A stretch of 64,000 nt of DNA from an uncultured bacterium. Its GTDB lineage: Bacteria; Patescibacteriota; Minisyncoccia; UBA6257; 2-01-FULL-56-20. Shown here in pieces: positions 17,958 through 47,483 of this stretch (position 1 is its first letter; each line of letters opens with the position of its first letter). Location of the stretch: the NCBI GenBank assembly GCA_963844965.1, contig CAWJQC010000008.1, forward strand, positions 92,185 to 156,184, given 5' to 3'. Both the position numbers and the translations under genes were made by a program. The notes beneath the pieces are model-generated. The model saw only the letters and a list, made by a program, of their open reading frames with translations. It was not told the DNA's origin and made no database searches.

Positions 17958-18082
17958 CATGAATCCCGTTAGAAGCCACGGTCGCGTTGCGGAAAACACC
18001 TATCGGGATAAAAATAAGGATTGCGAATTATAAATATAACCATCAGCAGGCGCCGACCGCGACCTGCTTCTAACGGGATGAA
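17958..18082 (+). mobile_element. MITE-like element copy 3 (TIR TCCCGTTAGAAG / CTTCTAACGGG; 5-bp direct repeat ATGAA) between infC stop and rpmI start
   Basis: ATGAA-TCCCGTTAGAAG…(92 nt)…CTTCTAACGGG-ATGAA. The right ATG is the rpmI start codon. Confidence 0.6.
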
Positions 18083-18245
18083 AAAAAGTGTTTCCAAAAG
18101 AATCAGAATCACGAGGAACGGCAAAATGATGCGGCGGCCGATGGCCACCGATCATTTTCGCACGCGCCACACGCAAAAAAATATAAGGCGTAAATCAAAA
18201 ACGCTCGGAGTTGACTATCCGAGGAAAAAAATCGTAAACTACTAA
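18078..18245 (+). CDS. rpmI: 50S ribosomal protein L35
   Basis: MKKSVSKRIRITRNGKMMRRPMATDHFRTRHTQKNIRRKSK… is basic and L35-like. Sits in the infC-rpmI-rplT order. Confidence 0.75.
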   Translation: MKKSVSKRIRITRNGKMMRRPMATDHFRTRHTQKNIRRKSKTLGVDYPRKKIVNY

Positions 18246-18248
18246 GCA

Positions 18249-18593
18249 ATGCCAAGGGTTAAGAGAGGAGTAAACGCGACAAAAAAACGGGAGCGGCTTC
18301 TCCGATACACGAAGGGTTTCCGCTGGGGAAGAAAATCAAAGGAGCGTGCGGCGAAAGAAGCTCTGCTTCACGCATGGACACACGCTTTCCGGGGGCGGAA
18401 AGAAAAAAAGCGGGATTACCGCGGGCTTTGGAATGTCCGCATCAACGCCGCTGCCCGCGCCGAAGGCACAAAATACAGCAAACTTATTGCCGATCTCAAA
18501 AAGAAAAACGTGAGGCTCGATCGGAAAATCCTGGCGGAACTCGCCGCTAACGAACCGGCAGTGTTCAAAAAAATTGTGGAATTCGCGAAATAA
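18249..18593 (+). CDS. rplT: 50S ribosomal protein L20
   Basis: MPRVKRGVNATKKRERLL…NVRINAAAR…VRLDRKILAELA is the L20 signature. Confidence 0.9.
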   Translation: MPRVKRGVNATKKRERLLRYTKGFRWGRKSKERAAKEALLHAWTHAFRGRKEKKRDYRGLWNVRINAAARAEGTKYSKLIADLKKKNVRLDRKILAELAANEPAVFKKIVEFAK

Positions 18594-18622
18594 AAGCTCC
18601 GGAATTGCGCCGGAGCTTTTTG
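18593..18622. terminator. bidirectional Rho-independent terminator
   Basis: AAAAGCTCCGGaattgcgCCGGAGCTTTTT. Confidence 0.7.
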
Positions 18623-18626
18623 ATTC

Positions 18627-18959
18627 TTAGTTGATCCATCGGTTCACGCTTCCACTGCGCGCTGTAAAGGACGCATCTTTGGAAATTTTCGGATTTGGAT
18701 GTTCAATAAGATAAATAACGGCAAATACAAGTATATAGGCAAAGGCCGCCACGAGGCCGAAGAGCCAGAAAAATAAACTTCCCGTTCCAAGTTGGCGGTC
18801 AAGTTTCATTCCCTCAACAAATGCGTTTGCCGTAACAAGCGAAGCGAGTAACACAAAAAGAAAAAAGGCAGAAACTGGACGTCCACGGCCGCGTGGACCC
18901 CGGAAAAAATTTCTCCATACCAGAAGCATCGCCCAGTAGTATTTCGGTACTATTCGCAT
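18627..18959 (-). CDS. hypothetical membrane protein
   Basis: 110 aa, 3 hydrophobic helices. Confidence 0.4.
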   Translation of the reverse strand: MRIVPKYYWAMLLVWRNFFRGPRGRGRPVSAFFLFVLLASLVTANAFVEGMKLDRQLGTGSLFFWLFGLVAAFAYILVFAVIYLIEHPNPKISKDASFTARSGSVNRWIN

Positions 18960-19020
18960 CGCAAGTCTCCTCTCAATATGCCGGAGGTAATGTTAACAAA
19001 CCAGACAGAAGAAATCAATG

Positions 19021-19527
19021 CTAACGAACAGCGCCGTGATGATGCCGCCGACTCCTTGCCAAAAGAAAGTCATGCGCCTGTTTTAAAATCCGCTTTACGC
19101 CTTGATACTTTTTCCCAACGGTCTTTACGGCGTCTTCGTAAGTGAACCAACCAAACCCGCTATGCTCGCGTGTCGATATTTTCACTTCCGCCTTGTGGGT
19201 TTCCGCAAGATAGAGAATAACTGTGTCGTGTATCTTTTCCTCGCCGCGCTGGAAATAAAATTTTTCGTACGCGCGGAATCCCTGCATCATCCGGAGTTCG
19301 GATTTCCTGATCCCCGTTTCCTCCTCAACTTCCCGCAGAGCAGCCTCCAAACTTGTTTCGCCGACCTCAAAATGCCCCTTGGGAAAATTCCAGTATGAAC
19401 CACGGCGGTATAAAAGTAAAAACTTTATGCCTTCGTGGGTACGCCTGTAAATCACAAAACCGGCGACAAACTGCCGCCGTGCTCGCACTTCATTGCGCCT
19501 AAGATATGTACGGAGATTTGTTGTCAT
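19021..19527 (-). CDS. NUDIX hydrolase
   Basis: Nudix box GHFEVGETSLEAALREVEEETGI. Confidence 0.8.
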   Translation of the reverse strand: MTTNLRTYLRRNEVRARRQFVAGFVIYRRTHEGIKFLLLYRRGSYWNFPKGHFEVGETSLEAALREVEEETGIRKSELRMMQGFRAYEKFYFQRGEEKIHDTVILYLAETHKAEVKISTREHSGFGWFTYEDAVKTVGKKYQGVKRILKQAHDFLLARSRRHHHGAVR

Positions 19528-19530
19528 TGG

Positions 19531-21264
19531 TTATTTAAGAAACTTTAACATCTTTTCAATTGGCCAGGAATTAATTATATCTTTTTTCCCAGCCCAGCCG
19601 CGGCGTGCCTGCGCGATGCCGTACTCCAAACATCCACAATGCGCCGGCGAATGGGCGTCGGAGTCAATCGCCAATTTAACACCAGCATCCACGCATTTTT
19701 TTATGTATTCGTCTTTGAGGTCAAGCCGGTCGGGAAAGGCGTCTATTTCCATTATCGTCCCGGTCTGCTTTGCGGTTTTTATAAGTTCATCCACGTCAAC
19801 TTCGTAAGGAGGGCGGCGGTTGATGATACGCCCCGTCGGATGGAAAATTATGTCCACATTCGGATTCCGCATCGCTTTCCTAATCCGCTCTGTCTGCTCC
19901 TCGCGCGGCAGATTGAAATATGAATGGACTGACGCGCCGACAACATCAAGCTTGGCCAAAATATCGTCAGGCAAGTCAAGCGAACCATCTTTCAAAATAT
20001 CGCATTCGCTGCCCTTTAAAATTTTAATTTTACCGCCGAACTTTTTATTGAGCCGGTCAATTTCGGTCATTTGTTTCAAAATTCCCTTTTCATCCAAACC
20101 ATGGGTCATCGCCAGACGTTTTGTGTGATCCGTGATAGCGATATATTCCAATCCGGCCTCGCTCGCGATCTTGGCCATTGTTTCTATGGAATCCGAGCCG
20201 TCTGTCCAGTCCGTCTGCACCTGTAAGTCGCCAAGCAAATCGTCATAGCCGATTAATTTCGGGAGTGTGTGGTTCTGCGCCAATTCTATCTCGCCCGTAT
20301 TTTCTCTCATCTCCGGCTCTATATAATCCATTCCCAGTGCTTTATATAATTCTTCCTCTGTTTTCCCAGCGATTTGCACTTCGCGCTTCGCGCCCTGCTT
20401 AAACAACCCATACTCGTTGAGTTTATATCCTTTTTTAATGGCAATCTGCCGCAGGGCAACATTATGGTCTTTGGAACCCGTAAAGTAGTTAAGGGCCGCG
20501 CCGTAGGAATCGCTCTCAACGACGCGCAGATCAACATTAATGCCGGATTTGAGTTTAATTGCCGATCTCGTTTCGCCGTGCGCATTAACTAGGGCAACTT
20601 CCGGCATTTTCACGAAGTAATTCATGACCGGTCCTGGGTTTTTGGAAATCGCTAGGATATCTGCATCGCCAATCGTCTCTTTCATCCGCCTTACCGAGCC
20701 GGCGACAACGACGCGCTCAATACCACCAAACTCCCGCAGGCGTTTTTCTATCATCCGTATCTCCGGCATGACAAAGCCTAAAACGAAACGCCCGCCGGAT
20801 TTTTTGGTGAACTCTATGCCTTGCAGAATTTTCTCCTCGCTTTTTTTGCCGAAGCCCTCAAGCTTGGCAATCTTTCCGGCCTTGGCCGCCTTTTCCAAAT
20901 CGGCGATATTCCTGATTCCCAATTTTTGATAAAGTTTTCTGACGGATTTCGGTCCCAGCCCTTCAATCGCCCCGAGCGAAGCAAGGTCAACTGGCGTTTT
21001 CTTTTTCAAATTTTCGTAGTCCTTTATCCGTCCGGTTGTGAGCAATTCTTCTATCCGTTCAGCTATTCCCCTGCCGACCCCGGGAATTCCTTCAAGCGCC
21101 TTCACGCCGCCCTTCCTGTATATTTCTTCCACTTCTTCTTCCAGACCAGCGATCACGCCCGCGACTTTCTCGTAAGCGCGTGGCTTGAACGGCACATCAT
21201 ACATCTCCAGATATTCGGCGATCTCCTTCAAAATTTCCGCGATTGATTGGTTAGAAATATTCAT
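19531..21264 (-). CDS. polX: DNA polymerase X family protein (Pol-beta-like core plus C-terminal PHP phosphoesterase domain)
   Basis: 577 aa. Helix-hairpin-helix motifs (GIPGVGRGIAERI, GLGPKSVRKL), a nucleotidyltransferase core (GSVRRMKETIGDADIL), then PHP-like histidine-rich segments. Confidence 0.75.
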   Translation of the reverse strand: MNISNQSIAEILKEIAEYLEMYDVPFKPRAYEKVAGVIAGLEEEVEEIYRKGGVKALEGIPGVGRGIAERIEELLTTGRIKDYENLKKKTPVDLASLGAIEGLGPKSVRKLYQKLGIRNIADLEKAAKAGKIAKLEGFGKKSEEKILQGIEFTKKSGGRFVLGFVMPEIRMIEKRLREFGGIERVVVAGSVRRMKETIGDADILAISKNPGPVMNYFVKMPEVALVNAHGETRSAIKLKSGINVDLRVVESDSYGAALNYFTGSKDHNVALRQIAIKKGYKLNEYGLFKQGAKREVQIAGKTEEELYKALGMDYIEPEMRENTGEIELAQNHTLPKLIGYDDLLGDLQVQTDWTDGSDSIETMAKIASEAGLEYIAITDHTKRLAMTHGLDEKGILKQMTEIDRLNKKFGGKIKILKGSECDILKDGSLDLPDDILAKLDVVGASVHSYFNLPREEQTERIRKAMRNPNVDIIFHPTGRIINRRPPYEVDVDELIKTAKQTGTIMEIDAFPDRLDLKDEYIKKCVDAGVKLAIDSDAHSPAHCGCLEYGIAQARRGWAGKKDIINSWPIEKMLKFLK

Positions 21265-21281
21265 CTATGGCGTGCAATTTT

Positions 21282-21923
21282 CTATGGCAAAGTAATTCGC
21301 GGAGGCGACGATTTTCTCTCCATCCTCGAACCATCCAATTTCGGAAAAAGCATGAGAAGAAGTGAGGATGCGATCAAATTTAGAATTGCCGCCACGGCAA
21401 AAGTCGTTCTAAAGCCATAAGCATCGGCAATTATCCCGCCAATCGCGCCGCCGACGGCAGTGGAAACGGTCAGACCGAAAACGCTGAATATGCTCCACTC
21501 AACACCCTCGGAAACCTTGTCAACGTGATGCGCGAAGATCGTATAGTAAGCAGCCATAAGACAAGCATCGCCGACCCCGCAGACGGCTTCCATTACGTAT
21601 AACTGCCAGGTAAACTTTATGAACATTAAGGTTAAGGGATAAACAACGCCTATCGCGCAGCCCAAAAGCATCACGCGGAAATCGTCTTTTTCCCCGGATT
21701 TTCTGTCTATTCTTCTCGCAATCGGTATCTGGAGAATTGATTTCACTATCGCGTAGATGGCGATCGCGAAACCAGCCGTTCTTAGGCTCGCCCCGACGAG
21801 CGTGCCCGTGATGAAAACCGCGAAAAGCGGCGCGAAAAGTCCGCCGCTCGCGTTCAGGATAAACAGGAAAAAAAGCAGGAGTTCAATTACCCTATTTATG
21901 GAAATGTTCAGTTTTATTCTCAT
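21282..21923 (-). CDS. MFS-type transporter-like membrane protein (6 TM; possibly a half-size or truncated MFS)
   Basis: Hydrophobic 6-helix pattern. Start ATG (plus cat 21921-21923) lies inside the MITE-like repeat; the track N-terminal extension RPISNGM comes from that repeat. Confidence 0.45.
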   Translation of the reverse strand: MRIKLNISINRVIELLLFFLFILNASGGLFAPLFAVFITGTLVGASLRTAGFAIAIYAIVKSILQIPIARRIDRKSGEKDDFRVMLLGCAIGVVYPLTLMFIKFTWQLYVMEAVCGVGDACLMAAYYTIFAHHVDKVSEGVEWSIFSVFGLTVSTAVGGAIGGIIADAYGFRTTFAVAAILNLIASSLLLMLFPKLDGSRMERKSSPPRITLP

Positions 21924-22054
21924 CCCGTTAGAAATAGGGCGCAACGCCGCCGCTCGTCCTCTTTATTATTTAATATTCGGCCATTTTGTTGATGTAATAT
22001 CCGCAAAGCGTCCGCGCCTGCCTGCCGGCAGGCAGGATTTCTAACGGGACCCAT
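21919..22054 (-). mobile_element. MITE-like element copy 1 (TIR TCCCGTTAGAAAT; flanks ATGGG/ATGAG) between the clpB-like stop and the MFS start
   Basis: On the minus strand: ATGGG-TCCCGTTAGAAAT…ATTTCTAACGGG-ATGAG. Contains the 20-bp palindrome at 22017-22036. Confidence 0.6.
22017..22036. repeat. perfect 20-bp palindrome CCTGCCTGCCGGCAGGCAGG (copy 1 of 3)
   Basis: Identical at 31099-31118 and 38023-38042. Confidence 0.9.
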
Positions 22055-24629
22055 TACTGTTTTACTATCTGATCTCCCAGTTCCACAAAACCGACCTCGT
22101 CGCCCTGCGTCGTGAGTTTTATATGGCTCCCGTGCTCAACTTTTTTCTCCAAAATTTTCTGCGCGAGCGGCGCGCGCAATTTTTCTTCTATCACGCGCCG
22201 CAGAGGTCTCGCGCCGAACGCGGGATCATATCCGATCCGCGCGAAAAGTTTTATAACCGCCGGATCAATTTCCATCTTTATCCCCTGCTCGCTCACCAAC
22301 TCTGCGACATCCTTAAGATTCAGCGCGACTATTTTTTCCAAATCCGCCGGCTCTAAATTTTTGAACACGACAATCCGCGAGAACCTGTTCAAAAGTTCTG
22401 GTTTGAAAATGTCGGTCAGTTTTCTCTTCAGATAGTCGGCGATCTGCGCCACCGATTGACCCTGGCTCAGGGCGTCATTGATGATATCCGAATGGGCATT
22501 AGAGGTGGCGATTATAATCGTGTTCTCAAAATCAACCGTGCGGCCGAGATTATCCGTGAGCCGGCCATCGTCAAACACCTGCAAAAATAAATTCAAGATA
22601 TCAGGGAAGGCCTTCTCAAATTCATCCAAAAGGATCAAACTATACGGCTTTTGCAGAATCGCGTCCGTCAAAGCTCCGCTTACCTGGCCATCGGGCGTTC
22701 CGATAAACCTGAAAAAACTCTGCTTATCCTGATATTCCGTCATGTCAAACCTCACCATTTCCTTATCCGAACCGAATTGGACCTTCGCCAAGATTTTGGC
22801 GAGTTCGGTTTTGCCGACGCCGGTCGGACCGACGAAAAGAAAACTGGCGATCGGTCCGCCTGGCCGCGCGAGCCCGCTCCTGTACTCGCGCAGGGCATCC
22901 GCCACGACCCCCACCGCCTCCTCCTGGTCGATCATCCGTTCGTGTATTGTCTCCTCCAACTTGAGAAGTTTTTGCGCCTCGGCTTCGGTTGCCTCGTGCA
23001 GCGGAATATTTACCTTTGCTTCGGCCACGCTTACCACCCTGTCCGGCCCCACGTACTTTTCCCCGCGCCTTTGGGCGTCAACCAAAGCGCTCTTCAATAT
23101 CTCCTCGGCGCTTGAAGGCAGAAATTTACTGCGCAAATATTTTTTTGCGAGCACAACCGCCTTCTTTATCGCGCCGAAACTTATGGTTACCCTGAACTGA
23201 CGCTCGAGTATCAGACTCTCGTAGGTTAAAATTTTTTCCGCGTCGGCGACGCTCACTTCGCTCACCCTGATTATTTCAAACGCGCCAGCAAAATCGCTAC
23301 GCGGCTCTATGAACTGCTTGAAGTCGCGCGGAAAAGTGAGCCGATCACCGGAAAGGCATTGTTTGTTATTATCGGCATCAAGGCATCAGCGGCGGAAATG
23401 TACGCGGCGCCGGAGGTGCGCACCAAGTTGTGTATGTTCGGGATGTAAATGATGATGTTCCCGGCGATGGTGATTTCTTCAATTATGTCTTTGAGCCGCG
23501 CGGTCAGTACTTCGGGCGGCGCGCCCGCCACAAGACTTTCAAGCTCAAGCGACACCAACCGCTTGTCAAACAACGCCGGCGGAACTTCGTCCTTAACAAG
23601 TTCCGCGGCGAGGTGAGAAATTATGGTTTCCTTGCCGATGCCGGCCTCCCCGACCAAAATAGCGTTGGGATTTATCGGCCGCGCCAACACTTCCACCAGC
23701 CGTTCAAACTCCTCTTTGTGACCGATCAAAAAACCGGTCTGATTCTGGCGGGCAAGATCGGTAAAGTCGGTTGAATATTTATCAAGGGTAGGCGTCGGCC
23801 GCGACGTCCACGCCCTATTCATTATGCGGTGTCGTATTTTCGGAGCACCAAACACAAAAAAGCCGCCGAGCGTCACTGGAATGCGGCGACTCATACTATG
23901 ACCCAGGGAACTGAAGATCATAGCGCGCTCAAGGTCGCCTACCTCGATCCCAAAAATGTTGAAAAGTCGGCTCATGGCTTCGTTTTTGACGAGAGGCATC
24001 GCCGAAAACAGGTCACTTGATTCTATGAAGTTGTGGCTCGCGCCCATGGCCTGTTCCAAGGCCAAAAGCACGAGCGTTTCCGCGTTCGCCAATCTATCTT
24101 CTTTGGAAATCGCGGACCACTCCCCGCTTTTTGAACTCTCGCCGAGAAACGCTTCTGTTTTCTGTTTGAATTCCTCTGGTTTTACATCAAGACGCTTTAA
24201 CCCCTCTTCTATGTCGGACAAATTTAGAAGCTGATGCGCCGTTTCCAGAAAGAAATTCTGCTTGGTGATCATGCTCCGGTCAAATGCCCTCTCCAGGGCG
24301 GCGAACGCCTTCGGCCGCAGATAACTCGCCATATTAACTCTGCCTCTTTTCGGCAACTCTATAAGCGGCTTGTCGCCCTCGTTCAGGTGGAGAAAGCGGT
24401 CAAACAGGAACAAAGCGAGAAATATTCCCGCATAGCGCAGTCCCCAGACCCCGGAGAGAAGAAACGAAGCCGCCGTAGCCGCAGTCACGAGGTACATCAC
24501 ATAACTTAGAACTCTTACGAATAATCTGCCCGGAAACGTCATCAAGAGTCGCGGGTCCTTATAACAGAAAACCGGACCCTCTCCAGCGACGCCCGCTGAC
24601 GCTGTTCCTTTACTATTTTCTTCGCTCAT
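22054..24629 (-). CDS. ClpB/ClpC-like two-domain AAA+ ATPase with N-terminal membrane anchor; split by a frameshift near 23265-23310
   Basis: ORF 23307..24629 has 2 N-terminal TM helices and a first AAA+ domain D1 (ILVGEAGIGKET…IIIYIPNIHNLV; Walker A/B look degenerate). ORF 22054..23265 is a second AAA+ domain D2 with intact GPTGVGKTELAK Walker A, LILLDEFEKA Walker B and the sensor-2 motif GARPLRR. Confidence 0.7.
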
Positions 24630-24988
24630 GGAGAATAGGAATGGAAATTAGTAGCGGCGAGAATAATAATAACCGGCGGAATCAAAACCCAAACAAGGTA
24701 AATAACAAGGAACACCAATCCCAAGAATAAATAGAGAACGCCGCCGATAAGTATCCTCCCTAAACGAAAGATCACGCCGAGAACTCTCCCGACTATCGTG
24801 TAATCCTTGTATAACGGCTGGAAGAAATATTTTATGGTAAGGCGAATCGCCAAAGACTTGTCCACCTCCTCCAAGATGGAAACAAACTTATGCGCCAAAA
24901 GACGCGAGCCGTCCACGTACCAGTGATGGAAAAAATCCAAAATCCTGTAAATGGCGCGATTGATTAAATAAACCAAGGCGAAGTTCAT
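24626..24988 (-). CDS. small membrane protein (hypothetical), translationally coupled upstream of the Clp-like ATPase
   Basis: 120 aa, two TM helices; ATGA overlap. Confidence 0.35.
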   Translation of the reverse strand: MNFALVYLINRAIYRILDFFHHWYVDGSRLLAHKFVSILEEVDKSLAIRLTIKYFFQPLYKDYTIVGRVLGVIFRLGRILIGGVLYLFLGLVFLVIYLVWVLIPPVIIILAATNFHSYSP

Positions 24989-25119
24989 TTATTTAAATTA
25001 TACCCGTTTGAGCCCAAGAGAACAAAAGATGCGCACGAAGGACGAAAATAAAAAAACCCGCGCATTGGTGCAAGCAATGGCGAGTATTCATATGAACACC
25101 GACTATCTCCACGGACCAA

Positions 25120-25521: not shown

Positions 25522-25596
25522 AACACCTCCTTCACACTACAAGCTAAGCGCAGATTAGCATATCGGCAATTTATCTGTCAAATTCGTCGCCGGGTT

Positions 25597-26238: not shown

Positions 26239-26333
26239 ATCAGAAATTATACACGAGTTCATTTTTTGTAGTAATACCGGAAAATTATCGTGACACTGAA
26301 ACGAAAGATGGCAACGTAAATCTTCCCAACGTA

Positions 26334-26369
26334 AAAAGCCGGTCGCCTGAGGCGACCGGCTTTTTATTT
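26334..26369. terminator. bidirectional Rho-independent terminator
   Basis: AAAAGCCGGTCGCCtgaGGCGACCGGCTTTTTATTT. Confidence 0.75.
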
Positions 26370-26389
26370 GCTGTCGCGACAGCAAATCG

Positions 26390-28411: not shown

Positions 28412-28444
28412 GCGGCTTTTTGTTTTGTCGCACAAACACGCAAA

Positions 28445-32587: not shown

Positions 32588-33898
32588 TTATCGATGCCCG
32601 CTCTTGAGTGTCTCCTCAACGACAAGTCGTTCGTTCCAGGGAATTTTTTCGCCTTTTTCTATATGAATCCAGTCCTCGCTTCCCTTGCCGGTCAGCACAA
32701 CAACGTCGCCGTTTCTGGCCACAGAAACCGCTTTCTTAATCGCCTCGCGCCGGTCGGTAAGTTCCCTTGTCGCATATCGCTTGTCACTTGTCACTCCGGA
32801 TTTTATCTCCGATAAAATCTGGCTAGGATTTTCGTCGTATGGGTCTTCGTTCGTCAGAATAATTTCATTGCAATATTCGGCGGCGATTTTTCCCATTTCC
32901 GGCCGCTTCCACCTGTCTCTGCCGCCACCCGCCGCCCCGAGAACACATATCAACTTGGACCTTGGAACTTTCAAAAAAGAATAAACTTTTTTTAATGAAT
33001 CCGGCGTATGGGCGTAATCTATAACAACCGAGAACGGGGTTCTTTGCACAAATTCCATCCTCCCCGGAACACCGCGGAAGGATCGTATCGCCTCTCTCGT
33101 CGCGTCTTCGCCGACCCCGATATCTCGCGCTACCGCAACGGCGGCGGCAATATTTTCTTTATTGAAATCTTCCAGCGGAAATTCACTGCGTGAATTGTCG
33201 GCGGCAACCCGAAGCGGACCTCGCCGCGGCAATAGCCGAGAAACATTCCCGTCATTCACCGAATACGCGGCTGGTCTGAATTTCTTGAGCGCATCAAAAA
33301 AGAAACCGGCGCTCTTATCCTCCGCATTGATGAAAATCTTTCCGCCCTTCTCGCCCACATAGCGCAAGAAATCAAGCTTGGCCTCACGATATTTTTCAAA
33401 AGAACCGTGCGCTTCAATGTGCTCCGGAGCGAGATTTGTCAAAATCCCCATATTCCAATTCACGAACAGATGGCGCGACAAAATCACGCCCTGCGAAGTG
33501 GCCTCAATCAACGCATACTGGCAATCGGCGCGGACTGCTTTACGCAAGAAGCGTTGAATGTAGGCGCGGCCTGGCATACTGTTTCCCGTTGGGTTCTTCT
33601 CGGAGCGATCGCCGATTTTCACGCGAAGCGACGAAAGCAGGGCAGTTTTTTTGCCCGCCGCCTCTAGAATTGCGTTCAAAAGTTCAAGAGTCGTCGTCTT
33701 GCCCTTCGTGCCCGTTACGCCGACCACAAAAATATTCCTGCTTGGAAAACCGCAAAAAACTGCGCCGAAAAAAGCCCAAAGGAAATGGTAAAGCCAAGCC
33801 GCGCCCGACAAATTATAGAAAAACCCGACCAGGGGAAAATTTTTTATTTTCTCCATCATAAATAATGACCGGCCAATAAGATTGCTAAACTTTACCAC
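32588..33898 (-). CDS. Mur ligase family protein (MurE/MurT-like)
   Basis: VVGVTGTKGKTTT P-loop and IDYAHTPDS motifs of Mur ligases. Confidence 0.65.
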   Translation of the reverse strand: MVKFSNLIGRSLFMMEKIKNFPLVGFFYNLSGAAWLYHFLWAFFGAVFCGFPSRNIFVVGVTGTKGKTTTLELLNAILEAAGKKTALLSSLRVKIGDRSEKNPTGNSMPGRAYIQRFLRKAVRADCQYALIEATSQGVILSRHLFVNWNMGILTNLAPEHIEAHGSFEKYREAKLDFLRYVGEKGGKIFINAEDKSAGFFFDALKKFRPAAYSVNDGNVSRLLPRRGPLRVAADNSRSEFPLEDFNKENIAAAVAVARDIGVGEDATREAIRSFRGVPGRMEFVQRTPFSVVIDYAHTPDSLKKVYSFLKVPRSKLICVLGAAGGGRDRWKRPEMGKIAAEYCNEIILTNEDPYDENPSQILSEIKSGVTSDKRYATRELTDRREAIKKAVSVARNGDVVVLTGKGSEDWIHIEKGEKIPWNERLVVEETLKSGHR

Positions 33899-34466
33899 TC
33901 AGAATCTTAAGCGCAGCCTTCAACCGTTCTTCCAAATTAACAATTTTCTCGTCAACTTTTCCGAGCGCTGCCTTGGCCTGTTCGCGGCGGTAGCCCAAGC
34001 CGACGAGCGTCTCAACGAGGTCAGCGTCAACCTCCATTTTGCCCACGGCAATCTCGGATTTTTCTGATTGTACTTTGCTCTTCAATTCCAGAATAATCCG
34101 CTCGGCCGTTTTCCTGCCGATCCCCGACGCGCGCGTGAGCAAATCCGGTCGCCCCTCTTTGATGGCTGCCGCCAAATTTTTCAGCTCGGCAACTTCCATT
34201 ATAGACAACGCCGACTTCGGCCCCACGCCGGAAACGGAAATCAATAGCTCAAAAAAGTTCAATTCGGCTTCCGTCAGAAATCCGTAGAGTTCCAGTCCGT
34301 CCTCGCGCATATGCAAATGACAGAAAAATTTAACGGCCAAGCCAATGGGTGGTAAAGCACCCAGCGTGCGACCGCTTACAAAAACCTTGAGCCCCAATCC
34401 AGCCGCGTCCACAACCGCGAAGTGTTCGCTCTTTGACATCAGTTTGCCCGAGACGCTGTAGAGCAT
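33885..34466 (-). CDS. ruvA: Holliday junction branch migration protein RuvA
   Basis: …LYGFLTEAELNFFELLISVSGVGPKSALSIM… are RuvA HhH motifs. Confidence 0.85.
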   Translation of the reverse strand: MLYSVSGKLMSKSEHFAVVDAAGLGLKVFVSGRTLGALPPIGLAVKFFCHLHMREDGLELYGFLTEAELNFFELLISVSGVGPKSALSIMEVAELKNLAAAIKEGRPDLLTRASGIGRKTAERIILELKSKVQSEKSEIAVGKMEVDADLVETLVGLGYRREQAKAALGKVDEKIVNLEERLKAALKILSGKV

Positions 34467-34622
34467 ACCCAGTAGAGGAATTTCGAATTATAACTTTCGG
34501 CTTTCTCGACTAAGCCGTTGACTTGTTCCCGTTGCGCTGATGGTGAAATTGTCCATAAAATAGGTGTTCGGCAGTAGGCGTTCGAAATTCTCCTACTGGG
34601 CATAATTCAATTATACGGCTAC

Positions 34623-38245: not shown

Positions 38246-38275
38246 TTAATAATTTTATACCTTACGCTTTCAACT

Positions 38276-39622: not shown

Positions 39623-39629
39623 TTTAGTA

Positions 39630-42151: not shown

Positions 42152-42183
42152 TTCTTAATCATAAATGCGATACATGAATAAAA

Positions 42184-42215
42184 CAAAAAACCCGAGCGCG
42201 ACCTGCTCGGGGGTT
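42184..42215. terminator. bidirectional Rho-independent terminator
   Basis: AAAAAACCCGAGCgcgacctGCTCGGGGGTTT. Confidence 0.7.
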
Positions 42216-42227
42216 TACTGACAATAT

Positions 42228-42569
42228 TCACCTGGAAAACGATCCACCGCATCCGTGATTCTTGCTAACGTTGGGATTTATAAAAACAAACCCCTCGCAA
42301 TCGCCACCAGCCACATAGTCAATTCGCGCGTTATCCACATAACGTGCGCTGTCGGGGTCAACTCGGATTTCAACGCCGAAATACTCGCGTTGAAAATCTG
42401 TCGGGCGCGCTGGTTTTTTATCGTAAAGTATGCTGTAACCAAACTCCGCGCAACCGCTGTCCCGAGCAACAATTCTCATAACAGCGCCGGCCATGCCTTC
42501 TTTTTCCGCGATTCTTTTGAATTCAGCCGCAGCTCTTTCTGTCAGCTCAATTTGCATACGTTCCTCCAT
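42228..42569 (-). CDS. HesB/IscA-family iron-sulfur cluster insertion protein
   Basis: C-terminal …FINPNVSKNHGCGGSF (CGCG-like) motif. Confidence 0.75.
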   Translation of the reverse strand: MEERMQIELTERAAAEFKRIAEKEGMAGAVMRIVARDSGCAEFGYSILYDKKPARPTDFQREYFGVEIRVDPDSARYVDNARIDYVAGGDCEGFVFINPNVSKNHGCGGSFSR

Positions 42570-42635
42570 AAAATAAAACGGCTGGCATCATCGTAGCACG
42601 GCTAGCCAAAACGACAAGTCCGCCGGGGAAAAATT

Positions 42636-43097
42636 CTAAAATCTGATTGTTCTCTCGTTCTCTTTTGCACCGTGCGAGAAATAAATCCAAGTGGAGTTCT
42701 CGGGTAAAATCCTTTTAATATTGTCGGCCCATTCTATAAGAACTATGTTTTTGGAATCGGCAAAAATCTCTTTCAGCCCGAGCGCTGGAAGTTCGCACGG
42801 CTTTTTGATGCGGTAAGCATCAACGTGATGTAAATTTTCAATTTTCAATTTACAATTTTCAATTTTGAAACGGCGCATAATGATAAACGTTGGACTCGTT
42901 GTTTTTTTGCGAATTCCGAGACCGCGCAGAAAACCCTGAATAAAGGTGGTCTTCCCGCTGCCTAGGTCGCCTGCAAGCGCAAAAACAAGCGCACCACGCA
43001 GTTTGGAAATTGAAAATTGAAAATTGAAAATTCTCTTGGCAAGTTCACTGCCAAGGTTCTTCGTCTCTCGCGAAGAAAAGCTTTGATAGGTTTTCAT
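42636..43097 (-). CDS. tsaE: tRNA threonylcarbamoyladenosine biosynthesis protein TsaE (contains two in-frame inverted heptamer-repeat insertions)
   Basis: GDLGSGKTTF P-loop and …SPTF… motif. Confidence 0.75.
   Translation of the reverse strand: MKTYQSFSSRETKNLGSELAKRIFNFQFSISKLRGALVFALAGDLGSGKTTFIQGFLRGLGIRKKTTSPTFIIMRRFKIENCKLKIENLHHVDAYRIKKPCELPALGLKEIFADSKNIVLIEWADNIKRILPENSTWIYFSHGAKENERTIRF
42833..42867. repeat. heptamer array (AATTTTC)x5 inside tsaE
   Basis: aattttcaattttcaatttacaattttcaatttt; inverted relative to the 43006-43033 array. Confidence 0.8.
43006..43033. repeat. heptamer array (GAAAATT)x4 inside tsaE, the inverted partner of 42833-42867
   Basis: gaaattgaaaattgaaaattgaaaattc. 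Confidence 0.8.
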
Positions 43098-43623
43098 TTC
43101 TCTTTAATAAAAACATAATTATGGCGGTCAAGACAACTGCCGCGCCGAGCATCGTGCTCCAAAATTCAACCGTGCCAAGATTTTTGTTAAGCGAAGTGCC
43201 GACAGGATACGTATTGTGAAGTATGCTTGTGTTTAACAAAATCTTGTTCGCCGCGCCGGGCGTCGGATCGCTCCAGGCAAATTGCTGCGCCAAACTCTCG
43301 GGATTATAGCCAATCCTTGAAAAACTTTTTCCCTCAGGCGCGCTGCCCAAAAATCCCGATTCATCAACAAGTTTGCCAGTTGCATCATAAAGAAAAAGTT
43401 TTTCGTCAGTGTTTTTCAGAACCAGTTTTGTGTCGGTGCGCTTCAGAACCAGATACTCACCGGCGCCGATTGCGCCTTTTAAGTTGTATTTGCTGGTGCC
43501 TGTGGTTTTTATAGTCCAGCCGCCCAAACTCGCGGGCACATTGCCGTTATTGAACAATTCCACCCATTCGCCCGTCGCATCGTTCCCGACCGGATTTGGA
43601 AGCCATTCGTTGATGAAAATCAT
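43045..43623 (-). CDS. lamin-tail-domain (LTD) protein with C-terminal TM anchor
   Basis: MIFINEWLPNPVGNDATGEWVELFN is the LTD signature. Confidence 0.6.
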   Translation of the reverse strand: MIFINEWLPNPVGNDATGEWVELFNNGNVPASLGGWTIKTTGTSKYNLKGAIGAGEYLVLKRTDTKLVLKNTDEKLFLYDATGKLVDESGFLGSAPEGKSFSRIGYNPESLAQQFAWSDPTPGAANKILLNTSILHNTYPVGTSLNKNLGTVEFWSTMLGAAVVLTAIIMFLLKRNENLSKLFFARDEEPWQ

Positions 43624-43757
43624 ACCTCATACATTATTTGTAACACACGCGAATTGCAAGTCTCCCACGTAAACAAAAAACTAGAACAAATTTAAGATCT
43701 CGCAGAAGAAAAGTTTGACAAAAATTAAAATAACGACCGCCTGACCACAAGCGGCCG

Positions 43758-44258
43758 TTATCTAATCCAAAGTTCTCCACGCCTCACCACCTTATTAACA
43801 AGGAAAATGGCCTCTGTGCGATTACTGCGGACGTCCAGCCAGCGCTTTGCGAACTCCTCGCAAAGCGCCTCTTCAACCTTGCGCGGAGGAACCCATCTTC
43901 TTTCTGGCGGCTTTACAAGAATATCATAACCAAAAGTGTGGCAAAGTTCGTGACCGACGGTTTTGGCTATATAGTCAACGTCAAGCGGGGCATCAATGTC
44001 AAGCGGGGTAACAAGATCGAATTCTATCCAAAAACCTCCGTCTCTCCTTGGGCAAAGATGGCCTCCGCCACGAAAGTGCCCGGCTCTGCATCGTAAGTCG
44101 AGAAAATACAGACATCGTATATCCCGCTCTTTTAGTTGATCAACAACTGGCGCTGCGGGAAGAAAACCAAGAAACTTTTCTATCAACCGCGCATTCTCGG
44201 TATTGTCGGTGATATCCCCGGGATACCAAAACTGACGTCTCCGTTCATCAGACATCAA
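43758..44258 (-). CDS. putative HExxH metallopeptidase-like protein (hypothetical)
   Basis: HELCH motif; 166 aa. Confidence 0.35.
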   Translation of the reverse strand: MMSDERRRQFWYPGDITDNTENARLIEKFLGFLPAAPVVDQLKERDIRCLYFLDLRCRAGHFRGGGHLCPRRDGGFWIEFDLVTPLDIDAPLDVDYIAKTVGHELCHTFGYDILVKPPERRWVPPRKVEEALCEEFAKRWLDVRSNRTEAIFLVNKVVRRGELWIR

Positions 44259-44319
44259 CCAACCTCCTACAATCTGCTAGACAGAATGTAGCACAAGAAG
44301 TTGTGTAGACGCAAGACAA

Positions 44320-45315
44320 TTACAGTAAATCACCTCTCCTAACTATTCCCAAATGGTCGTACGCCGCCGGCAGAGCAATTCTGCCGGCCGACGAGCGCTG
44401 TAAAAAACCCAACGTCATCAAATATGGCTCGTAAATATCCTCAATTACGCCCTTTTCCTCGCTCAAAGCCGCGGAAAGCGTGTTTATTCCGACAGGTCCA
44501 CCGTTAAACTTCTTTATTATTGTCTCTAATAAACGCCTGTCCTGCGGTTCAAGCCCAAGGTCGTCAATTTCCAGCATTTCCAGGGTCTTTTTGGCCACTC
44601 CGGCGTCAACTATTTTCTTACCGTTCACCTCCGCGTAGTCGCGGGCGCGCTTCAAAAGCCGGTTTGCCACGCGCGGCGTGCCTCGCGAGGCCTTTGCCAA
44701 AATTTCCACCGAGGCGGGCTCAATCGAAACACCCAGAAGTTTCGCCGAGCGCGCAAGAATCTTCTTGATATCATCCTGCACATAATAATTCAAACGGAAC
44801 GTGGCGCCGAAACGGGAGCGTAGCGGTTGCGAGAGCAGGTTTTCCCTTGTCGTCGCGGCGATAAGCGTGAACGCCGGCAGGTCCAAACTCAAAGTCCGCG
44901 CTGAAGGACCTTTGCCGACGACAAGATGAAGCTTCCGCGACTCCATCGCCGGGTAAAGCACCTCCTCAATCAATGGATTAACTCTATGTGCCTCGTCTAT
45001 GAAAAGAATCTCGCCCGGTTCAAGATTCGTAAGTATCGCCGCGAGGTCACCAGCTTTCTCGAGCGCGGGCCCCGAGGTCGTCCGCACGCCACAGCCAAGT
45101 TCTTTTCCGACCAAATAGGCGAGCGTGGTCTTCCCGAGTCCCGCGGGACCGGAAAAAAGAAAATGATCCGCAGATTCTTTCCTTTTTTTCGCGGCGTCAA
45201 TGATAACACGAAGGTTGTTTTTTATTTTCTCCTGGCCAACGTACTCGTCCCACTTCGTGGGACGGAGGGCCTGATCAATACTCATATCCTCCTTTGTTTT
45301 GGCGTCAATTTTCAT
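44320..45315 (-). CDS. ruvB: Holliday junction DNA helicase RuvB
   Basis: LFSGPAGLGKTTLA Walker A, …ILFIDEAHRVN…, RuvB C-terminal winged helix. Confidence 0.9.
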   Translation of the reverse strand: MKIDAKTKEDMSIDQALRPTKWDEYVGQEKIKNNLRVIIDAAKKRKESADHFLFSGPAGLGKTTLAYLVGKELGCGVRTTSGPALEKAGDLAAILTNLEPGEILFIDEAHRVNPLIEEVLYPAMESRKLHLVVGKGPSARTLSLDLPAFTLIAATTRENLLSQPLRSRFGATFRLNYYVQDDIKKILARSAKLLGVSIEPASVEILAKASRGTPRVANRLLKRARDYAEVNGKKIVDAGVAKKTLEMLEIDDLGLEPQDRRLLETIIKKFNGGPVGINTLSAALSEEKGVIEDIYEPYLMTLGFLQRSSAGRIALPAAYDHLGIVRRGDLL

Positions 45316-45361
45316 GAAAATCTATAAAATTAGCCGCTTTCTTCTAAGGTATTGACAACAG

Positions 45362-45390
45362 ATAATTTTTATGCTAACATATGGCAGAAT
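45362..45390 (+). promoter_or_regulatory. near-consensus sigma70 promoter (TTGACA-17-TAACAT) with no downstream ORF
   Basis: attgacaacagataatttttatgctaacat. Confidence 0.5.
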
Positions 45391-45396
45391 GCTGGT

Positions 45397-45590
45397 TTTA
45401 CAAGGTTTTTAAGCTCCTTCAAATCTGGGGGCGGGAACGATCCTTAGCTACTCCAGGAAGGCGTGGTTTCGGCGACGCCTCTCCTCGGGATAATTCTAAC
45501 CTCTTTTGATTTTATTAAAAGAGAATCTTGTTCCGACTCCGGTCGGAGCATGCCCCCAGGTTTGAGGGAGTTTTGTTTTCAAAATTAAAT
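45397..45590 (+). ncRNA. candidate structured ncRNA: closing helix CTGGGGGC/GCCCCCAGG around three internal hairpins, then U-rich tail
   Basis: 45435-45442 pairs with 45562-45570. Internal hairpins GGCGTgg…ACGCC, CTCTTTTgattttattAAAAGAG and CCGACtccGGTCGG. Followed by TTTTGTTTTC. No ORF. Confidence 0.4.
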
Positions 45591-45670
45591 ATTAAAAACA
45601 AAAATTAAAGATATTATGATTTTTGATTTAATTCCTCGACCTTTGTATACTTATTTTTAATATTTGATTT

Positions 45671-47363
45671 TTAATCTGTCTGCTGTTTCCACTCTATCCT
45701 GCCGGTAACCGACTCCACTTCGTCAAAACTCGTTAAACCCTGAAGGACCTTCAGAATTCCGTCGGCTTGCATGCTCACCATTTCCTGGGAGTCCGCGAAT
45801 TTTTTCAGGGCCACCTCCGATGCCTCTTTCAGTATCACTTCTTCCAAGGCAATGCCTCCCTCCAAAAATTCGTACACTCCCACGCGGCCGCGGTAGCCGA
45901 GGCCGCTGCATTTCGCGCAACCGACTGGTTCGTAAACATTTATTTTCTCATATGCGGCCTGGTTCACCCGTTTCGGTAAATTATCCAAAAATTTTTGTAT
46001 CTTGGCTCGGAAGCCACCGTCCAACGCTTTCGCCTTCTTGCATTCGGCACAAAGGCGCCGCACGAGACGCTGGGCGATAATCAAATTGAGCGCCGGCCCG
46101 ATACTCACGGCTTTCACGCCCAAATTTATCAGGCGTGGGACGGCACCGACGGCATCATTCGTGTGAAGCGTTGAGAGGACCAGGTGGCCGGTAAGCGAGG
46201 CTTGAAGCGCAATATCCGCAGTATCCAAATCCCTGATCTCACCTACGAGAATTATGTCCGGGTCCTGACGCACGACCGCCCGCAACCCCTTCGCGAACGT
46301 ATAGCCGGCCTCGGAATCAACCTGCGTCTGTTCTATGCCCGGAATCCTGTACTCTATTGGATCTTCAAGGGTTATTATTTTTATTTCGGGGCTGTTAACC
46401 CTCTTCAAAAACGCGTAAAGGGTGGTGGTTTTCCCGGAGCCGGTGGGACCAGTGTTTAAAATAAGGCCGTTGGGCTTTTCTATTTGGCGATTTACAATAA
46501 CGAGGATCGTCTTCCCTTATGCCCAGCCCGCCGAGGTCAATCGCGATAACATCCGGGTCCAGGATCCGCAGGACAATGGTCTCGCCGAATTCCGCCGGTA
46601 TAACCGAGGCGCGAATTTCTATTTCCTTTTGCCCGAAACCTATCGTGAACCGACCGTCCTGTGACTCGCCTTTTATATTTATCTTCATTCCGGAGAGAAG
46701 CTTGAGGCGCGAAACCAAGGACTCGTAATTCTTAAGCGGCAACTCCTCGAAAATATCGTGCAACAAGCCGTCAACTCTGTAGCGCATGCGCGCGTTTTTC
46801 TCCCCGGCCTCAAAATGTATGTCGGACGCCTTAAGACCCATGGCGCCGGCCAGGACAACCTCGATAAGAGTGACCGGGGTCGTCTTTGTAAAATCCAATT
46901 TTCCTATTTCGCTTTTTACCGCGGAGAAATTAACGAGTATCGCGGAGAGTTCTTCAAGCCGCTTTTTTTCGATTTTCACCTTGCCGGTAATCTCTTCCGC
47001 CTCCGGTTTGACAAATTTATAAAAGCGCCAGGCGTCGCCGAGTCCCGAAAGTGACGTGACGAACGTTTTTACCTCGTATTTTTTATTTTCCAGGTCTTTG
47101 ATAATTTTTTGCACCGCGGGCGCGCGGGGATCGGCGGCGGCTAAAGCCACTCTCCTGACCTTGACCTCAATCGTTGCGACCCTCGCGCCGCGCGCCACAT
47201 CTTCCAGAACAAGTTTTAACGCGTCCGTGGAAACGGGGGTCTTGGATAAATCCACATAAGGAAACCCTGCGTCACTAGCCAAACGTTGCGCCGCCCGCTC
47301 CTCGCCTTCGCGGTGGAGAACGGTAAGTTTACTTTGCAGAACGGATGGCTTTTGAGGATCCAT
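45671..47363 (-). CDS. GspE/PilB-family secretion ATPase (type II/IV pilus assembly), split by one frameshift near 46500
   Basis: N-terminal GspII_E_N-like domain (…DAGFPYVDL…). The alternate frame supplies NTGPTGSGKTTTLYAFLKRVNSPE (Walker A). The C-part has the tetracysteine motif CAECKK…CAKC. Start ATG (plus cat 47361-47363) is inside MITE-like copy 2. Confidence 0.8.
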
Positions 47364-47483
47364 CCCGTTAGAAATAGGACGCGGATAAAGCCACCGCGCC
47401 ATTTTTAATTTTTTGTAGTGCTCTGACCATTTACAATGATTCTTCTATTTTGCAACGCATCCGCAATTTCTAACGGGATCCAT
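47359..47483 (-). mobile_element. MITE-like element copy 2 (TIR ATCCCGTTAGAAAT; perfect 5-bp direct repeat TCCAT/ATGGA) at the gspE/pilB start codon
   Basis: On the minus strand: ATGGA-TCCCGTTAGAAAT…ATTTCTAACGGG-ATGGA. Confidence 0.65.

Follow-up and report, generated by a model that had tools for sequence, protein, structure and literature searches.

Short inverted-repeat elements on start codons in Patescibacteria and a ~280-bp parent that encodes only a GIY-YIG nuclease

Three short inserts lie on the start codons of genes in a 64,000-nucleotide stretch of contig CAWJQC010000008.1 (GenBank assembly GCA_963844965.1, positions 92,185 to 156,184), which comes from an uncultured member of the Patescibacteriota and is referred to here, at its full length, as the window. 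An earlier note, made from the letters of this DNA alone, had reported that the three loci share an architecture in which a pentamer ATGRR, a pair of inverted termini and a second ATGRR follow one another. This architecture is real: it was read directly in the sequence, the arms are perfectly complementary, and the coordinates given at the time are correct to within one base (copy 3 begins at 17959). The 11-mer TCCCGTTAGAA is present exactly six times in the window, solely as three inward-facing pairs, as compared to a chance expectation, by simple arithmetic, of ~0.03 exact occurrences on both strands of 64 kb; when up to two mismatches are allowed, its frequency is at the background level (20 observed vs 18.9 expected). 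Exact 13-14-bp inverted termini (TCCCGTTAGAA.../...TTCTAACGGGA) bound the three elements, and a repeat search returned arms of 14, 14 and 13 nt with 100% complementarity and spacers of 89, 90 and 101 nt. Read along the strand of its downstream gene, each locus has the order ATGRR, TCCCGTTAGAARY ... RYTTCTAACGGG, ATGRR, and the second ATGRR is the start codon of rpmI, of an MFS gene or of gspE/pilB. The flanking pentamers, again in gene sense, are ATGAA/ATGAA for copy 3, ATGGG/ATGAG (one mismatch) for copy 1 and ATGGA/ATGGA for copy 2.

Copy 3, at the rpmI start, lies on the forward strand and spans 17959-18082 including both ATGRR copies. Its upstream target copy ATGAA (17959..17963) represents the original start codon plus 2 nt, and the empty orthologous sites (L124, L125, L126 and L129 of the related contigs described below) hold a single ATGAA. 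It is followed by the 5' terminal inverted repeat TCCCGTTAGAAGC (17964..17976), the interior (17977..18065), the 3' terminal inverted repeat GCTTCTAACGGGA (18066..18078), whose last A is the A of the rpmI ATG, and the downstream target copy ATGAA (18078..18082), with which rpmI (18078-18245) starts. The interior contains the two strands of a subterminal stem, CACGGTC / GACCGCG (17977-17983 / 18055-18061), with a 3'-side bulge ACCT (18062-18065), and an internal CGGGA (18004-18008) that is able to pair with the 5' terminus. An open reading frame (ORF) of 24 codons, MNPVRSHGRV..., runs from the upstream ATG (17959..18033) to a TAA stop 44 nt before rpmI, and a further TAA (18071-18073) lies inside the 3' terminus, 4 nt ahead of the host ATG.

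Copies 1 and 2 are both on the reverse strand. Copy 1 (21919-22054, both target copies included) separates a clpB-like gene from the MFS gene, and its upstream target copy ATGGG (22050..22054) overlaps the TAA stop of the clpB-like gene (TAATGGG). In gene sense, the 5' terminal inverted repeat is TCCCGTTAGAAAT (22037..22049) and the 3' terminal inverted repeat is ATTTCTAACGGGA (21923..21935), which again ends in the A (21923) of the host ATG; the downstream target copy ATGAG (21919..21923) starts the MFS gene (21282-21923). A 44-codon ORF extends from the upstream ATG across the whole element (21920..22054), and its TGA overlaps the host ATG (ATGA). Copy 2 (47359-47483, likewise with both target copies) has the upstream target copy ATGGA at 47479..47483, the termini TCCCGTTAGAAAT (47466..47478) and ATTTCTAACGGGA (47363..47375), and the downstream target copy ATGGA (47359..47363), which starts the N-terminal ORF of gspE/pilB (46395-47363). 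It holds two ORFs in series. The first, of 12 codons (MDPVRNCGCVAK; 47445..47483), runs from the upstream ATG to a TAG stop; the second, of 20 codons (MVRALQKIKNGAVALSASYF; 47368..47430), begins 14 nt past that stop, and the TAA that closes it, in the 3' terminus, lies 4 nt ahead of the ATG of gspE.

The interiors of the three copies had also been described as related. A block GCGTTGCGGAAAA is indeed loosely common to copies 3 and 2 only, but the interiors are otherwise barely alignable, and conservation outside the termini is confined to a subterminal stem and to the final codons of what remains of an ORF. All three copies are predicted to fold with a long terminal stem (z = -3.4 to -4.5 vs shuffles), and the earlier proposal that a stem hides the start codon in the mRNA is compatible with these predicted folds. 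A search of the whole window against Rfam 15 at the gathering threshold returned a tRNA only and no family for the elements, and an E-value search of Rfam over copy 3 gave nothing better than E = 6.5.

We scanned one genome per species for the two termini, using a pattern of 11 fixed nucleotides at each end, 75-105 nt apart, from which the flanks were omitted. The sample comprises at least 119 stretches (denoted by L numbers) with at least 125 elements, which with the three window copies makes 128; counts given below are among these matches listed, unless another set is named. Among the carriers each Patescibacteria class is represented (Saccharimonadia, many Paceibacteria lineages, Microgenomatia, ABY1, Kazan), and outside this group there are three Omnitrophota and two Planctomycetes bins. 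The span between outer ends is 98-127 bp in the 128 copies. An ATG directly abuts one end in 121/128 copies and lies exactly 5 nt ahead of the 5' terminus in 85 of the 118 that could be oriented, and a perfect 5-nt repeat ATGNN is present on both sides in 76/116. The NN of this repeat co-varies between left and right (AA, GA, AG, CG, CA, TA, AT, GG), and a sequence logo of the reconstructed target gives ATG + R (92%) + R (98%), preceded only by A/T richness. In 111 copies the downstream ATG opens an ORF of at least 60 codons; the genes concerned belong to 125 Pfam families, of which none is preferred, and SSB, TopA (topoisomerase I), PGK, ClpP, L29 and SecG are among them. Thus many additional copies exist, and on the 128 copies, with flanks outside the search pattern, what had been proposed from three held: a non-autonomous inverted-repeat element, specific to start codons, with a 5-bp duplication that starts with ATG and whose 3' copy is the start codon, the flanking pentamers being duplicated in the larger sample with co-varying variable bases. 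In some copies the repeat is 4 to 6 nt long, and ATGAA dominates. As A is the last base of the 3' terminus, a duplication of 4 bp, TGRR, would be just as possible, the A then coming from the element; a few copies with GTG or CTG at the left fit a 5-bp or a 4-bp duplication alike. Viral contigs held no copies of the element, and so there is no sign of a phage vehicle. No published description of these start-codon elements was found in the literature.

The arms co-vary beyond the searched 11 nt. Position 12 is GC in 50 copies, AU in 49 and CG in 5, and unpaired in 5/111; position 13 is UA in 63, CG in 35 and AU in 7, and unpaired in 3/111. A second stem of 7 bp, CGCGRWC/GWYCGCG, is present in ~40% of the copies with compensatory changes, and carries a 4-nt bulge on its 3' side (ATCT, ACCT or TCCT). 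Among copies with an asymmetric subterminal signature, the orientation to the gene is 65:5 (p = 2e-14). The interiors encode only ORFs of 6-44 codons without similarity to the nuclease profile described below, and those of 117 copies form 110 clusters. An integron attC site was considered and rejected: the GTT/AAC core order is inverted relative to attC, and the adjoining genes are core genes. Pairing of ATGRR to the anticodon loop of initiator tRNA was likewise rejected, position +5 being mostly A and not G. Variants of the element were also seen. Tandem or nested copies occur at left flanks in L010, L090, L096, L062 and L081, the second element often having a variant terminus (TTCTCTAACGGG, ATAACGGG) and ending exactly at the ATGAA that precedes the first, so that one repeat is common to both. 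Shorter relatives of ~70 nt lie at 1795-1864 in L029 and 7173-7239 in L007, one of them with the repeat ATTGA, and a minimal 29-nt hairpin in L104 (4277-4305) consists of the two termini alone.

The occupied start codons are not a random sample of starts. An upstream co-directional ORF ends no more than 25 nt away at 39/85 element sites, as compared to 216/852 other predicted starts, and a TANNNT box 5-8 nt upstream, as expected for leaderless mRNA, is present at 20/85 vs 163/852. A Shine-Dalgarno sequence as the only signal was found at 0/85 element sites and 73/852 other starts, and the remaining sites (26/85 and 400/852) belong to none of these classes; Shine-Dalgarno sequences are used in only ~15% of the genes of the window genome. 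According to a census of all ATGRR sites in the same ~1 Mb, which is weakened by crude gene calls, 5% are predicted start codons, 75% intragenic and 20% intergenic. Predicted starts make up 21% of the sites once the intragenic ones are excluded, so random insertion that spares gene interiors would place about one fifth of the copies at starts, vs the >90% seen.

Empty and filled sites were compared in eight related contigs, which were reached via homologues of the neighbouring PolX gene (PolX identity 77-98%), and relatives have empty sites at the same start codons, in line with the comparison that the earlier note had proposed. The ClpB/MFS start is filled in the window, L122 and L124 and empty in L120 and L126-L129 (e.g. 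TAAAAAATGAGAATA). Three different subfamilies occupy it, with the repeats ATGGG/ATGAG, ATGAG and ATGAA, each matching the genome's own second codon. Similarly, the IF3/L35 start is filled in the window and L127 and empty in L124, L126 and L129, while at the PolX/NUDIX start L120 and L127 hold an orthologous copy (3 substitutions in 115 nt) and the window and the others are empty. The empty-site orthologues of rpmI and the MFS gene begin at the same ATG, and the rpmI N-terminus, MKKSVSK, is the same in relatives with an empty site. Two near-identical copies in L061 and a related copy in L071, which belong to the same metagenome-assembled genome (MAG), lie at different genes and differ in their repeat, ATGAA in L061 and ATGCG in L071. 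These empty and filled states, together with same-MAG copies that differ in their repeats, show that the element is mobile and that some start codons have been hit repeatedly.

Other inserts were noticed in the same contigs. L120, a close relative of L127, carries a different insert of ~100 nt at the start codon of copy 3 (IF3/L35 junction, ~12960-13120, reverse strand), with repeated CCCGAAT units and imperfect inverted ends GCGATCC/GGGTCGC. A GC-rich insert of ~190 nt lies near the 3' end of PolX in L127 (6865-7050) and L128 (5056-5250). The coding sequence for the PolX C-terminus (..AWPLEKML(R/K)FLK) is present twice, once on each side of this insert, which has the appearance of a further element that rebuilds the end of the gene it has entered.

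A fourth start-codon element of the window belongs to a second terminus family, which is unrelated to the main one. It occupies 34468-34600 (34464-34604 with flanks) at a reverse-strand gene (33885-34466), has the termini CCCAGTAGGAGAATTTCGAA / TTCGAAATTCCTCTACTGGG with TATG flanking both sides, and carries a TATAAT box 6 nt ahead of the upstream ATG. A terminus scan found this family at no fewer than 120 metagenome loci. Among the matches listed for it, 114/159 arms are flanked by TATG or CATA, 61/66 gene-side ATGs open ORFs of at least 60 codons, and sizes span 81 to ~430 bp, clustering at 81-84, 120-150 and ~300-340 bp. The ~300-bp copies encode a GIY-YIG catalytic domain of 93-105 residues (Pfam PF01541, E = 3e-17), and the reading frame of this nuclease opens with the duplicated host ATG and continues across the terminus (MPSRRISNWHYVYVL...). 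A third family was seen in L085 (2967-, 5407-5537, -7888) with the termini TCCCGCACCTTTAGAGGAC / GTCCTCTAAAAGTGCGGGA; it has the outer TCCCG/CGGGA and an ATGAG repeat in common with the main family, and an internal 23-codon ORF ends at a TAA in its 3' terminus, 9 nt before the host ATG.

A search with the protein profile of the second family led to the parent of the main one. It returned a GIY-YIG ORF in L064 that lies between termini one or two bases off those of the window, with its stop inside the 3' terminus. This full-length element measures ~280 bp and consists of two 13-bp inverted termini around a single gene, that of the GIY-YIG nuclease. In L253 the order is TCCCGTTAGAAAT, the GIY-YIG ORF, GCTTCCTATTTCTAA CGGG and the ATGAA of ruvX, and the termini, TCCCGTTAGAAAT / ATTTCTAACGGGA, are exactly those of window copies 1 and 2. 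L250, L255 and L259 have the same ATGRR repeat around a one-base variant of the terminus, TCCCGTTAGAGAT...ATCTCTAACGGG, and a -10 box 6-8 nt ahead of the upstream ATG; L250 reads TGTTAATATTTAGAG ATGAA, TCCCGTTAGAGAT, nuclease, TATCTCTAA CGGG and the ATGAA of a racemase gene, and in L255 and L259 ATGGA stands on both sides. The targets of full-length elements are as varied as racemase, ruvX, virD4-like and other genes, and in every case seen the host gene begins 4-5 nt after the nuclease stop.

The nuclease homologues, of which we considered the best 120 matches, are 83-92 residues long and 80-100% identical, come from many metagenomes of the candidate phyla radiation (CPR), and all carry a precomputed PF01541 assignment. 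Fourteen of the 120 start with M[NDSG]PVRD, the translation of the duplicated ATG continued into TCCCGTTAGAGAT, and the C-termini GASYL-stop (107) and GASYF-stop (9) correspond to CTCTAA or TTCTAA in the terminus. At 83-92 residues the protein is the catalytic domain only, with no separate DNA-binding domain. Its closest solved relatives are the stand-alone UPF0213 GIY-YIG proteins 1zg2 and 1ywl (E = 7e-8), followed by weak matches to the I-TevI catalytic domain and SLX1; a weak match to the group I intron endonuclease family was also found. No classical transposase was found between termini, and no pair of termini more than 440 bp apart was present in ~1.9 Mb of loci. A classical autonomous insertion sequence was rejected on the same search, in which neither long termini pairs nor ATGNN-TCCCG...CGGG-ATGNN arrangements 160-4000 bp apart were found, and other short families appeared instead. 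The GIY-YIG gene is the only gene found enclosed by the termini. As a separate observation, GIY-YIG ORFs are also inserted in tRNA genes (L001 ~4385-4705, L114 ~5172-5483); in these, a 5' tRNA part of ~23 nt is duplicated on both sides, and an intact tRNA gene follows the nuclease gene.

The short elements show every sequence-level characteristic of MITEs, the miniature transposable elements with inverted repeats, and the window inserts are very probably start-codon-targeting MITEs derived from the GIY-YIG element. Whether the GIY-YIG protein is also what moves them is evenly balanced in our judgement; a host enzyme or a transposase that has escaped notice is the alternative.

The termini of the short copies are laid out in reading frames. 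The frame of the upstream ATG runs through the 5' terminus as M-x-P-V-R, and every copy has inside its 3' terminus the TAA that lies 4 nt before the host ATG, referred to below as TAA(-7); starts of the form ATGA add an overlapping TGA. The frame ending at this TAA is open for at least 20 codons in 68/118 copies, and the other two frames in 16 and 26. Shuffled interiors provided the only null, offsets 1 and 2 being invalid controls since the 5' terminus itself has TAG/TGA there. On this null, an ATG-initiated ORF of at least 12 codons that ends at TAA(-7) is present in 58/117 copies vs 13.6 ± 3.4 after shuffling, and one that ends at TAA(-7) or at the overlapping TGA(+1) in 69/117 vs 22.9 ± 4.1. 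ORFs from the upstream ATG cross the whole element in 31/85 copies vs 9.6 ± 2.9; 21 of them end at TAA(-7), 9 at ATGA and 1 in an in-frame fusion. Where the two ATGs are in frame, an internal stop intervenes in 18/19 copies, and the spacing d, taken modulo 3, is 1, 2 and 0 in 53, 36 and 28 copies (p = 0.015). These frame counts are largely independent because the 117 interiors fall into 110 clusters.

By this layout, 30 of the 117 copies have an ORF through the element, 43 have an internal ATG ORF that ends at the terminus, and 16 have only an internal CGGGR able to pair with the 5' terminus. Internal CGGGR is five times commoner than in shuffles and is anti-correlated with the relay ORFs of the first two classes (p = 4e-4). 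A first-ORF stop lies within -10 to +20 nt of the next ATG in 14 of 22 cases, a purely descriptive figure. Taken together, a coupling layout, with a stop near or overlapping the start, is present in 69-73 of the 117 short copies and in every full-length element seen. In many short copies the last codons (..SASYF-stop) match the C-terminus of the nuclease, as do those of the second ORF of copy 2 (ASYF-stop, compared with GASYF-stop), and the remaining peptide has no match. The possibility that the open frames are relics of the nuclease gene was therefore rejected, as there is no similarity past the last ~5 codons and the frames are not recognisable as relics. A promoter in the 3' terminus, which would give a leaderless host mRNA, was also rejected, no -10-like hexamer being present at -12 to -7. 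Mismatch positions in imperfect repeats, counted by hand in a small sample, gave no signal of selection on the upstream ATG.

The best overall explanation, which we consider likely, is that these are start-codon MITEs with a GIY-YIG parent and with translation threaded through the element. On this explanation the three inserts are internally deleted, non-autonomous members of a Patescibacteria-wide family of very small DNA elements, whose long and short forms both insert at start codons and duplicate ATGRR (or TGRR), so that the gene keeps an intact ATG after the 3' terminus. In the full-length form, the nuclease would be translated from the host gene's own initiation signals, which are mostly leaderless or coupled. 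Ribosomes that arrive by loading at the 5' end, or after termination of the upstream gene, would translate the element from the old ATG, terminate beside the host ATG and reinitiate there. The short copies would achieve the same relay by one ORF across the element or by two short ORFs in series; in a minority, pairing of the 5' terminus to the internal CGGGR may prevent the host ATG from being drawn into the terminal stem. That ribosomes are relayed in this way to the host gene is an interpretation of the frame statistics to which we give slightly better than even weight. Such a relay would account for the tolerance of insertions on essential genes, for the avoidance of in-frame fusions and for an orientation that is strongly biased even where a copy contains no gene. 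As for the nuclease, it may recognise a hairpin or cruciform formed by the arms. The co-varying arms suggest that a folded form is what is recognised, as would fit the structure-specific GIY-YIG enzyme SLX1, although the similarity to SLX1 is weak.

It is possible, at somewhat less than even probability, that the parent represents a new class of prokaryotic DNA transposon, i.e. a unit of ~280 bp with a bare GIY-YIG domain of 84 residues that recognises a hairpin or cruciform, borrows the start codon of its host and hands translation back by reinitiation, and that at least two unrelated terminus families (ATGRR and TATG) use this strategy in bacteria with leaderless or coupled translation; this single estimate covers both statements. 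On such a reading, the element would lack a promoter and ribosome-binding site of its own because it is built for insertion on a start codon.

Several observations weigh against this explanation. Neither relay ORF nor CGGGR is present in 28 of the 117 copies (24%), and in window copy 3 no ATG-initiated ORF reaches TAA(-7). The CGGGR motif came to notice in the very data on which it was then tested, and a single AT-rich subfamily may account for it. Neither -10 boxes nor Shine-Dalgarno sequences show enrichment at the internal ATGs with which relay ORFs begin. An unbiased subset of the copies gave no asymmetry between G.U and A.C in the stem, and hence no ground for placing the stem in RNA rather than in DNA. 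No GIY-YIG ORF was found in the window (best E = 0.15), which leaves the source of the enzyme for its three copies unseen, and we know of no precedent for an 84-residue catalytic domain without a DNA-binding domain as a transposase. Some copies have no repeat; among them the left flank ACTTG recurs in L038, L081, L085, L091 and L268, and the full-length element of L253 has the left flank ATTGG. Decayed copies went unsampled because the search pattern was fixed for 11 nt at each end, the census of ATGRR sites has the crude gene calls mentioned above, and the preference for start codons beyond ATGRR is left unexplained.

The frames may instead be incidental. According to this alternative, which we regard as unlikely, the elements are MITEs, but the host gene initiates directly at the downstream ATG after the stem has been cleaved (e.g. 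by RNase III), or from an internal promoter, in either case with a new, near-leaderless 5' end. The copies with neither relay ORF nor decoy, and the incomplete relay of window copy 3, would fit this alternative, the interrupted 20-bp stem would be a plausible substrate for a double-strand RNase, and a few interiors (L005, L044, L097) have an extended -10 box 6 nt before an internal ATG. However, frames that end at TAA(-7) or ATGA are three to four times commoner than in shuffles, in-frame fusions are avoided, the orientation is 65:5, and the full-length stop is 4 nt ahead of the host ATG in all cases seen. Internal -10 boxes are moreover not enriched (7/40 vs a background of 12.7%), and the 3' terminus has no well-placed -10-like hexamer.

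A second possibility, which we consider rather improbable, concerns the way of spreading. GIY-YIG enzymes are known as homing endonucleases and not as transposases, and the nuclease has its weak match to the group I intron endonuclease family; it might cut ATGRR-type sites, after which repair would copy the donor by way of ATGRR microhomology, with no duplication from staggered cuts. The dominance of ATGAA among the repeats and their variable length of 4 to 6 nt would fit such a process. Yet close relatives within one MAG differ in their repeat (ATGAA vs ATGCG), and at the start codon hit by three subfamilies each of these has the bases of the local second codon. The 84-residue protein also lacks the DNA-binding domains of I-TevI-type enzymes, and perfect inverted termini with co-varying arms would be superfluous for homing.

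A tyrosine-type site-specific recombinase acting on a circular form is very unlikely. The joined ends, TTCTAACGGG-ATGRR-TCCCGTTAGAA, with ATGRR as the crossover region, would resemble loxP or dif core sites as generally known, and tandem copies in L010 and L090 have one common ATGAA; but empty targets do not resemble the arms, the elements have no recombinase gene linked to them, and the sole gene inside the termini is that of the GIY-YIG nuclease. The idea of a non-mobile, vertically inherited cis-regulatory leader or structured 5' RNA module, which the conserved stem with its co-varying pairs and its fixed position relative to the start codon might suggest, is already contradicted by the empty sites and the parent element, as well as by different subfamilies at one site in close relatives, co-varying flanking repeats, 125 unrelated downstream gene families and the lack of an Rfam match, and has only the slightest probability. 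The same very low probability applies to ribosome bypass from the upstream to the identical downstream AUG over the base of the hairpin (as in T4 gene 60), or to mRNA splicing: identical take-off and landing sequences do surround a stable hairpin, but neither process would select open frames, stops beside the host ATG or avoidance of fusions, Rfam gave no ribozyme or intron signature, and the interiors are unconserved.

Several further features of the window were noted. Three host or neighbouring genes are each split into two ORFs: infC (17493-17955), in overlapping or adjacent ORFs with the shift in an A-rich run near 17700-17741, where relatives have one ORF (IF3 of 132-190 aa); the clpB-like gene (22054-24629), where relatives have one ORF of 823-857 aa; and gspE/pilB (45671-47363), in overlapping or adjacent ORFs, where relatives have one. 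These splits are either assembly indels or pseudogenes. A perfect palindrome of 21+21 nt (CAAAAATAAAACGTCCCATTA/TAACGGGACGTTTTATTTTTG) at 15574-15615 has a centre, TCCCATTATAACGGGA, similar to two element termini joined together; it may be a terminator that acts in both directions or a remnant. Inverted arrays of the heptamer AATTTTC/GAAAATT, of 3-5 units each and ~120 nt apart, lie at 42833-42875 and 42997-43032.

Among known systems, the elements most resemble bacterial MITEs such as Correia/NEMIS (Neisseria), ERIC/IRU, RUP and MITEAba12, which likewise measure ~100-150 bp and have inverted termini, short target repeats and no transposase gene, occur at many unrelated loci, form a long hairpin when co-transcribed and derive from a longer element with the same ends. 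They differ from the described MITEs in target, parent enzyme and translational layout: here insertion takes place at the start codon itself and the ATG is restored by the duplication, the enzyme encoded by the parent is a GIY-YIG nuclease and not a DDE transposase, and the termini lie in reading frames that are open from the ATG and stop 4 nt before the host ATG. In addition, this family spans a super-phylum and has very divergent interiors.

Free-standing GIY-YIG homing genes (T4 seg, and I-TevI of the td intron) share with the parent element a selfish, nuclease-only gene that spares its neighbours and, for I-TevI, a weak sequence similarity to the catalytic domain. In contrast to these, the protein described here is the catalytic domain alone (84-92 aa), without linker or DNA-binding domain; its gene has perfect inverted repeats and a duplicated target around it and is found not at a single cognate site but at many genes unrelated to one another; and there are deletion derivatives that have remained mobile. 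Judged from these sequence features, the parent is not a classical homing endonuclease gene. The UPF0213 / COG2827 proteins (B. halodurans BH0048, 1zg2; E. faecalis EF2693, 1ywl) have the same size and the same GIY-YIG, Arg/His and Glu motifs. They are ordinary single-copy genes whose role is not known, and to our knowledge neither inverted termini nor start-codon placement has been reported for them.

The nearest match in the literature comes from the same group of organisms: GIY-YIG ORFs have been described in non-intron insertions in CPR rRNA genes and were judged by the authors to lie outside homing (Tsurumaki et al. 2024, PMC11270868). Those insertions differ in that they are in rRNA genes and that inverted termini, target duplication and start-codon targeting are not described. 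GIY-YIG genes are also noted among those transferred from Patescibacteria (PMC12455944). Rickettsia palindromic elements, too, are mobile palindromes that leave the gene carrying them translatable, but their place is within coding regions, in frame, so that the protein includes them, whereas the elements described here sit on the start codon and fusion is avoided. The layout itself recalls termination-reinitiation at ATGA/TAATG pairs and in RNA phage genes, in which an upstream stop lies no more than 4 nt from the next start or overlaps it, and the start is part of a stem to be opened by a ribosome coming from upstream; the difference is that here a mobile element carries the layout and installs it with each insertion, its putative function being suggested by sequence statistics only. 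Finally, a target choice that spares the host is also seen in Tn7 (attTn7 downstream of glmS) and R2 (rDNA), whereas the haven here is any start codon and would also serve the element's own expression.

The parent may be a new class of transposon, and if the nuclease is the mobilising enzyme, it would be the smallest autonomous DNA transposon known to us and the first bacterial one based on a GIY-YIG domain. Its harmlessness would be of a different kind: the element does not avoid genes, sits on the starts of essential ones (SSB, TopA, L35, L29, SecG) and appears to thread translation through itself. For annotation, gene callers extend or misplace starts at element sites, as seen in the window in the N-termini MRPISNGM... 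and MARWLYPRPISNGM..., and miss L35 in some relatives. The combination of a hairpin, a short ORF and a stop-restart is a compact natural cassette and a candidate translational coupler. Since the sites are leaderless or coupled and almost never led by a Shine-Dalgarno sequence, the elements also offer a testable handle on translation in CPR bacteria.

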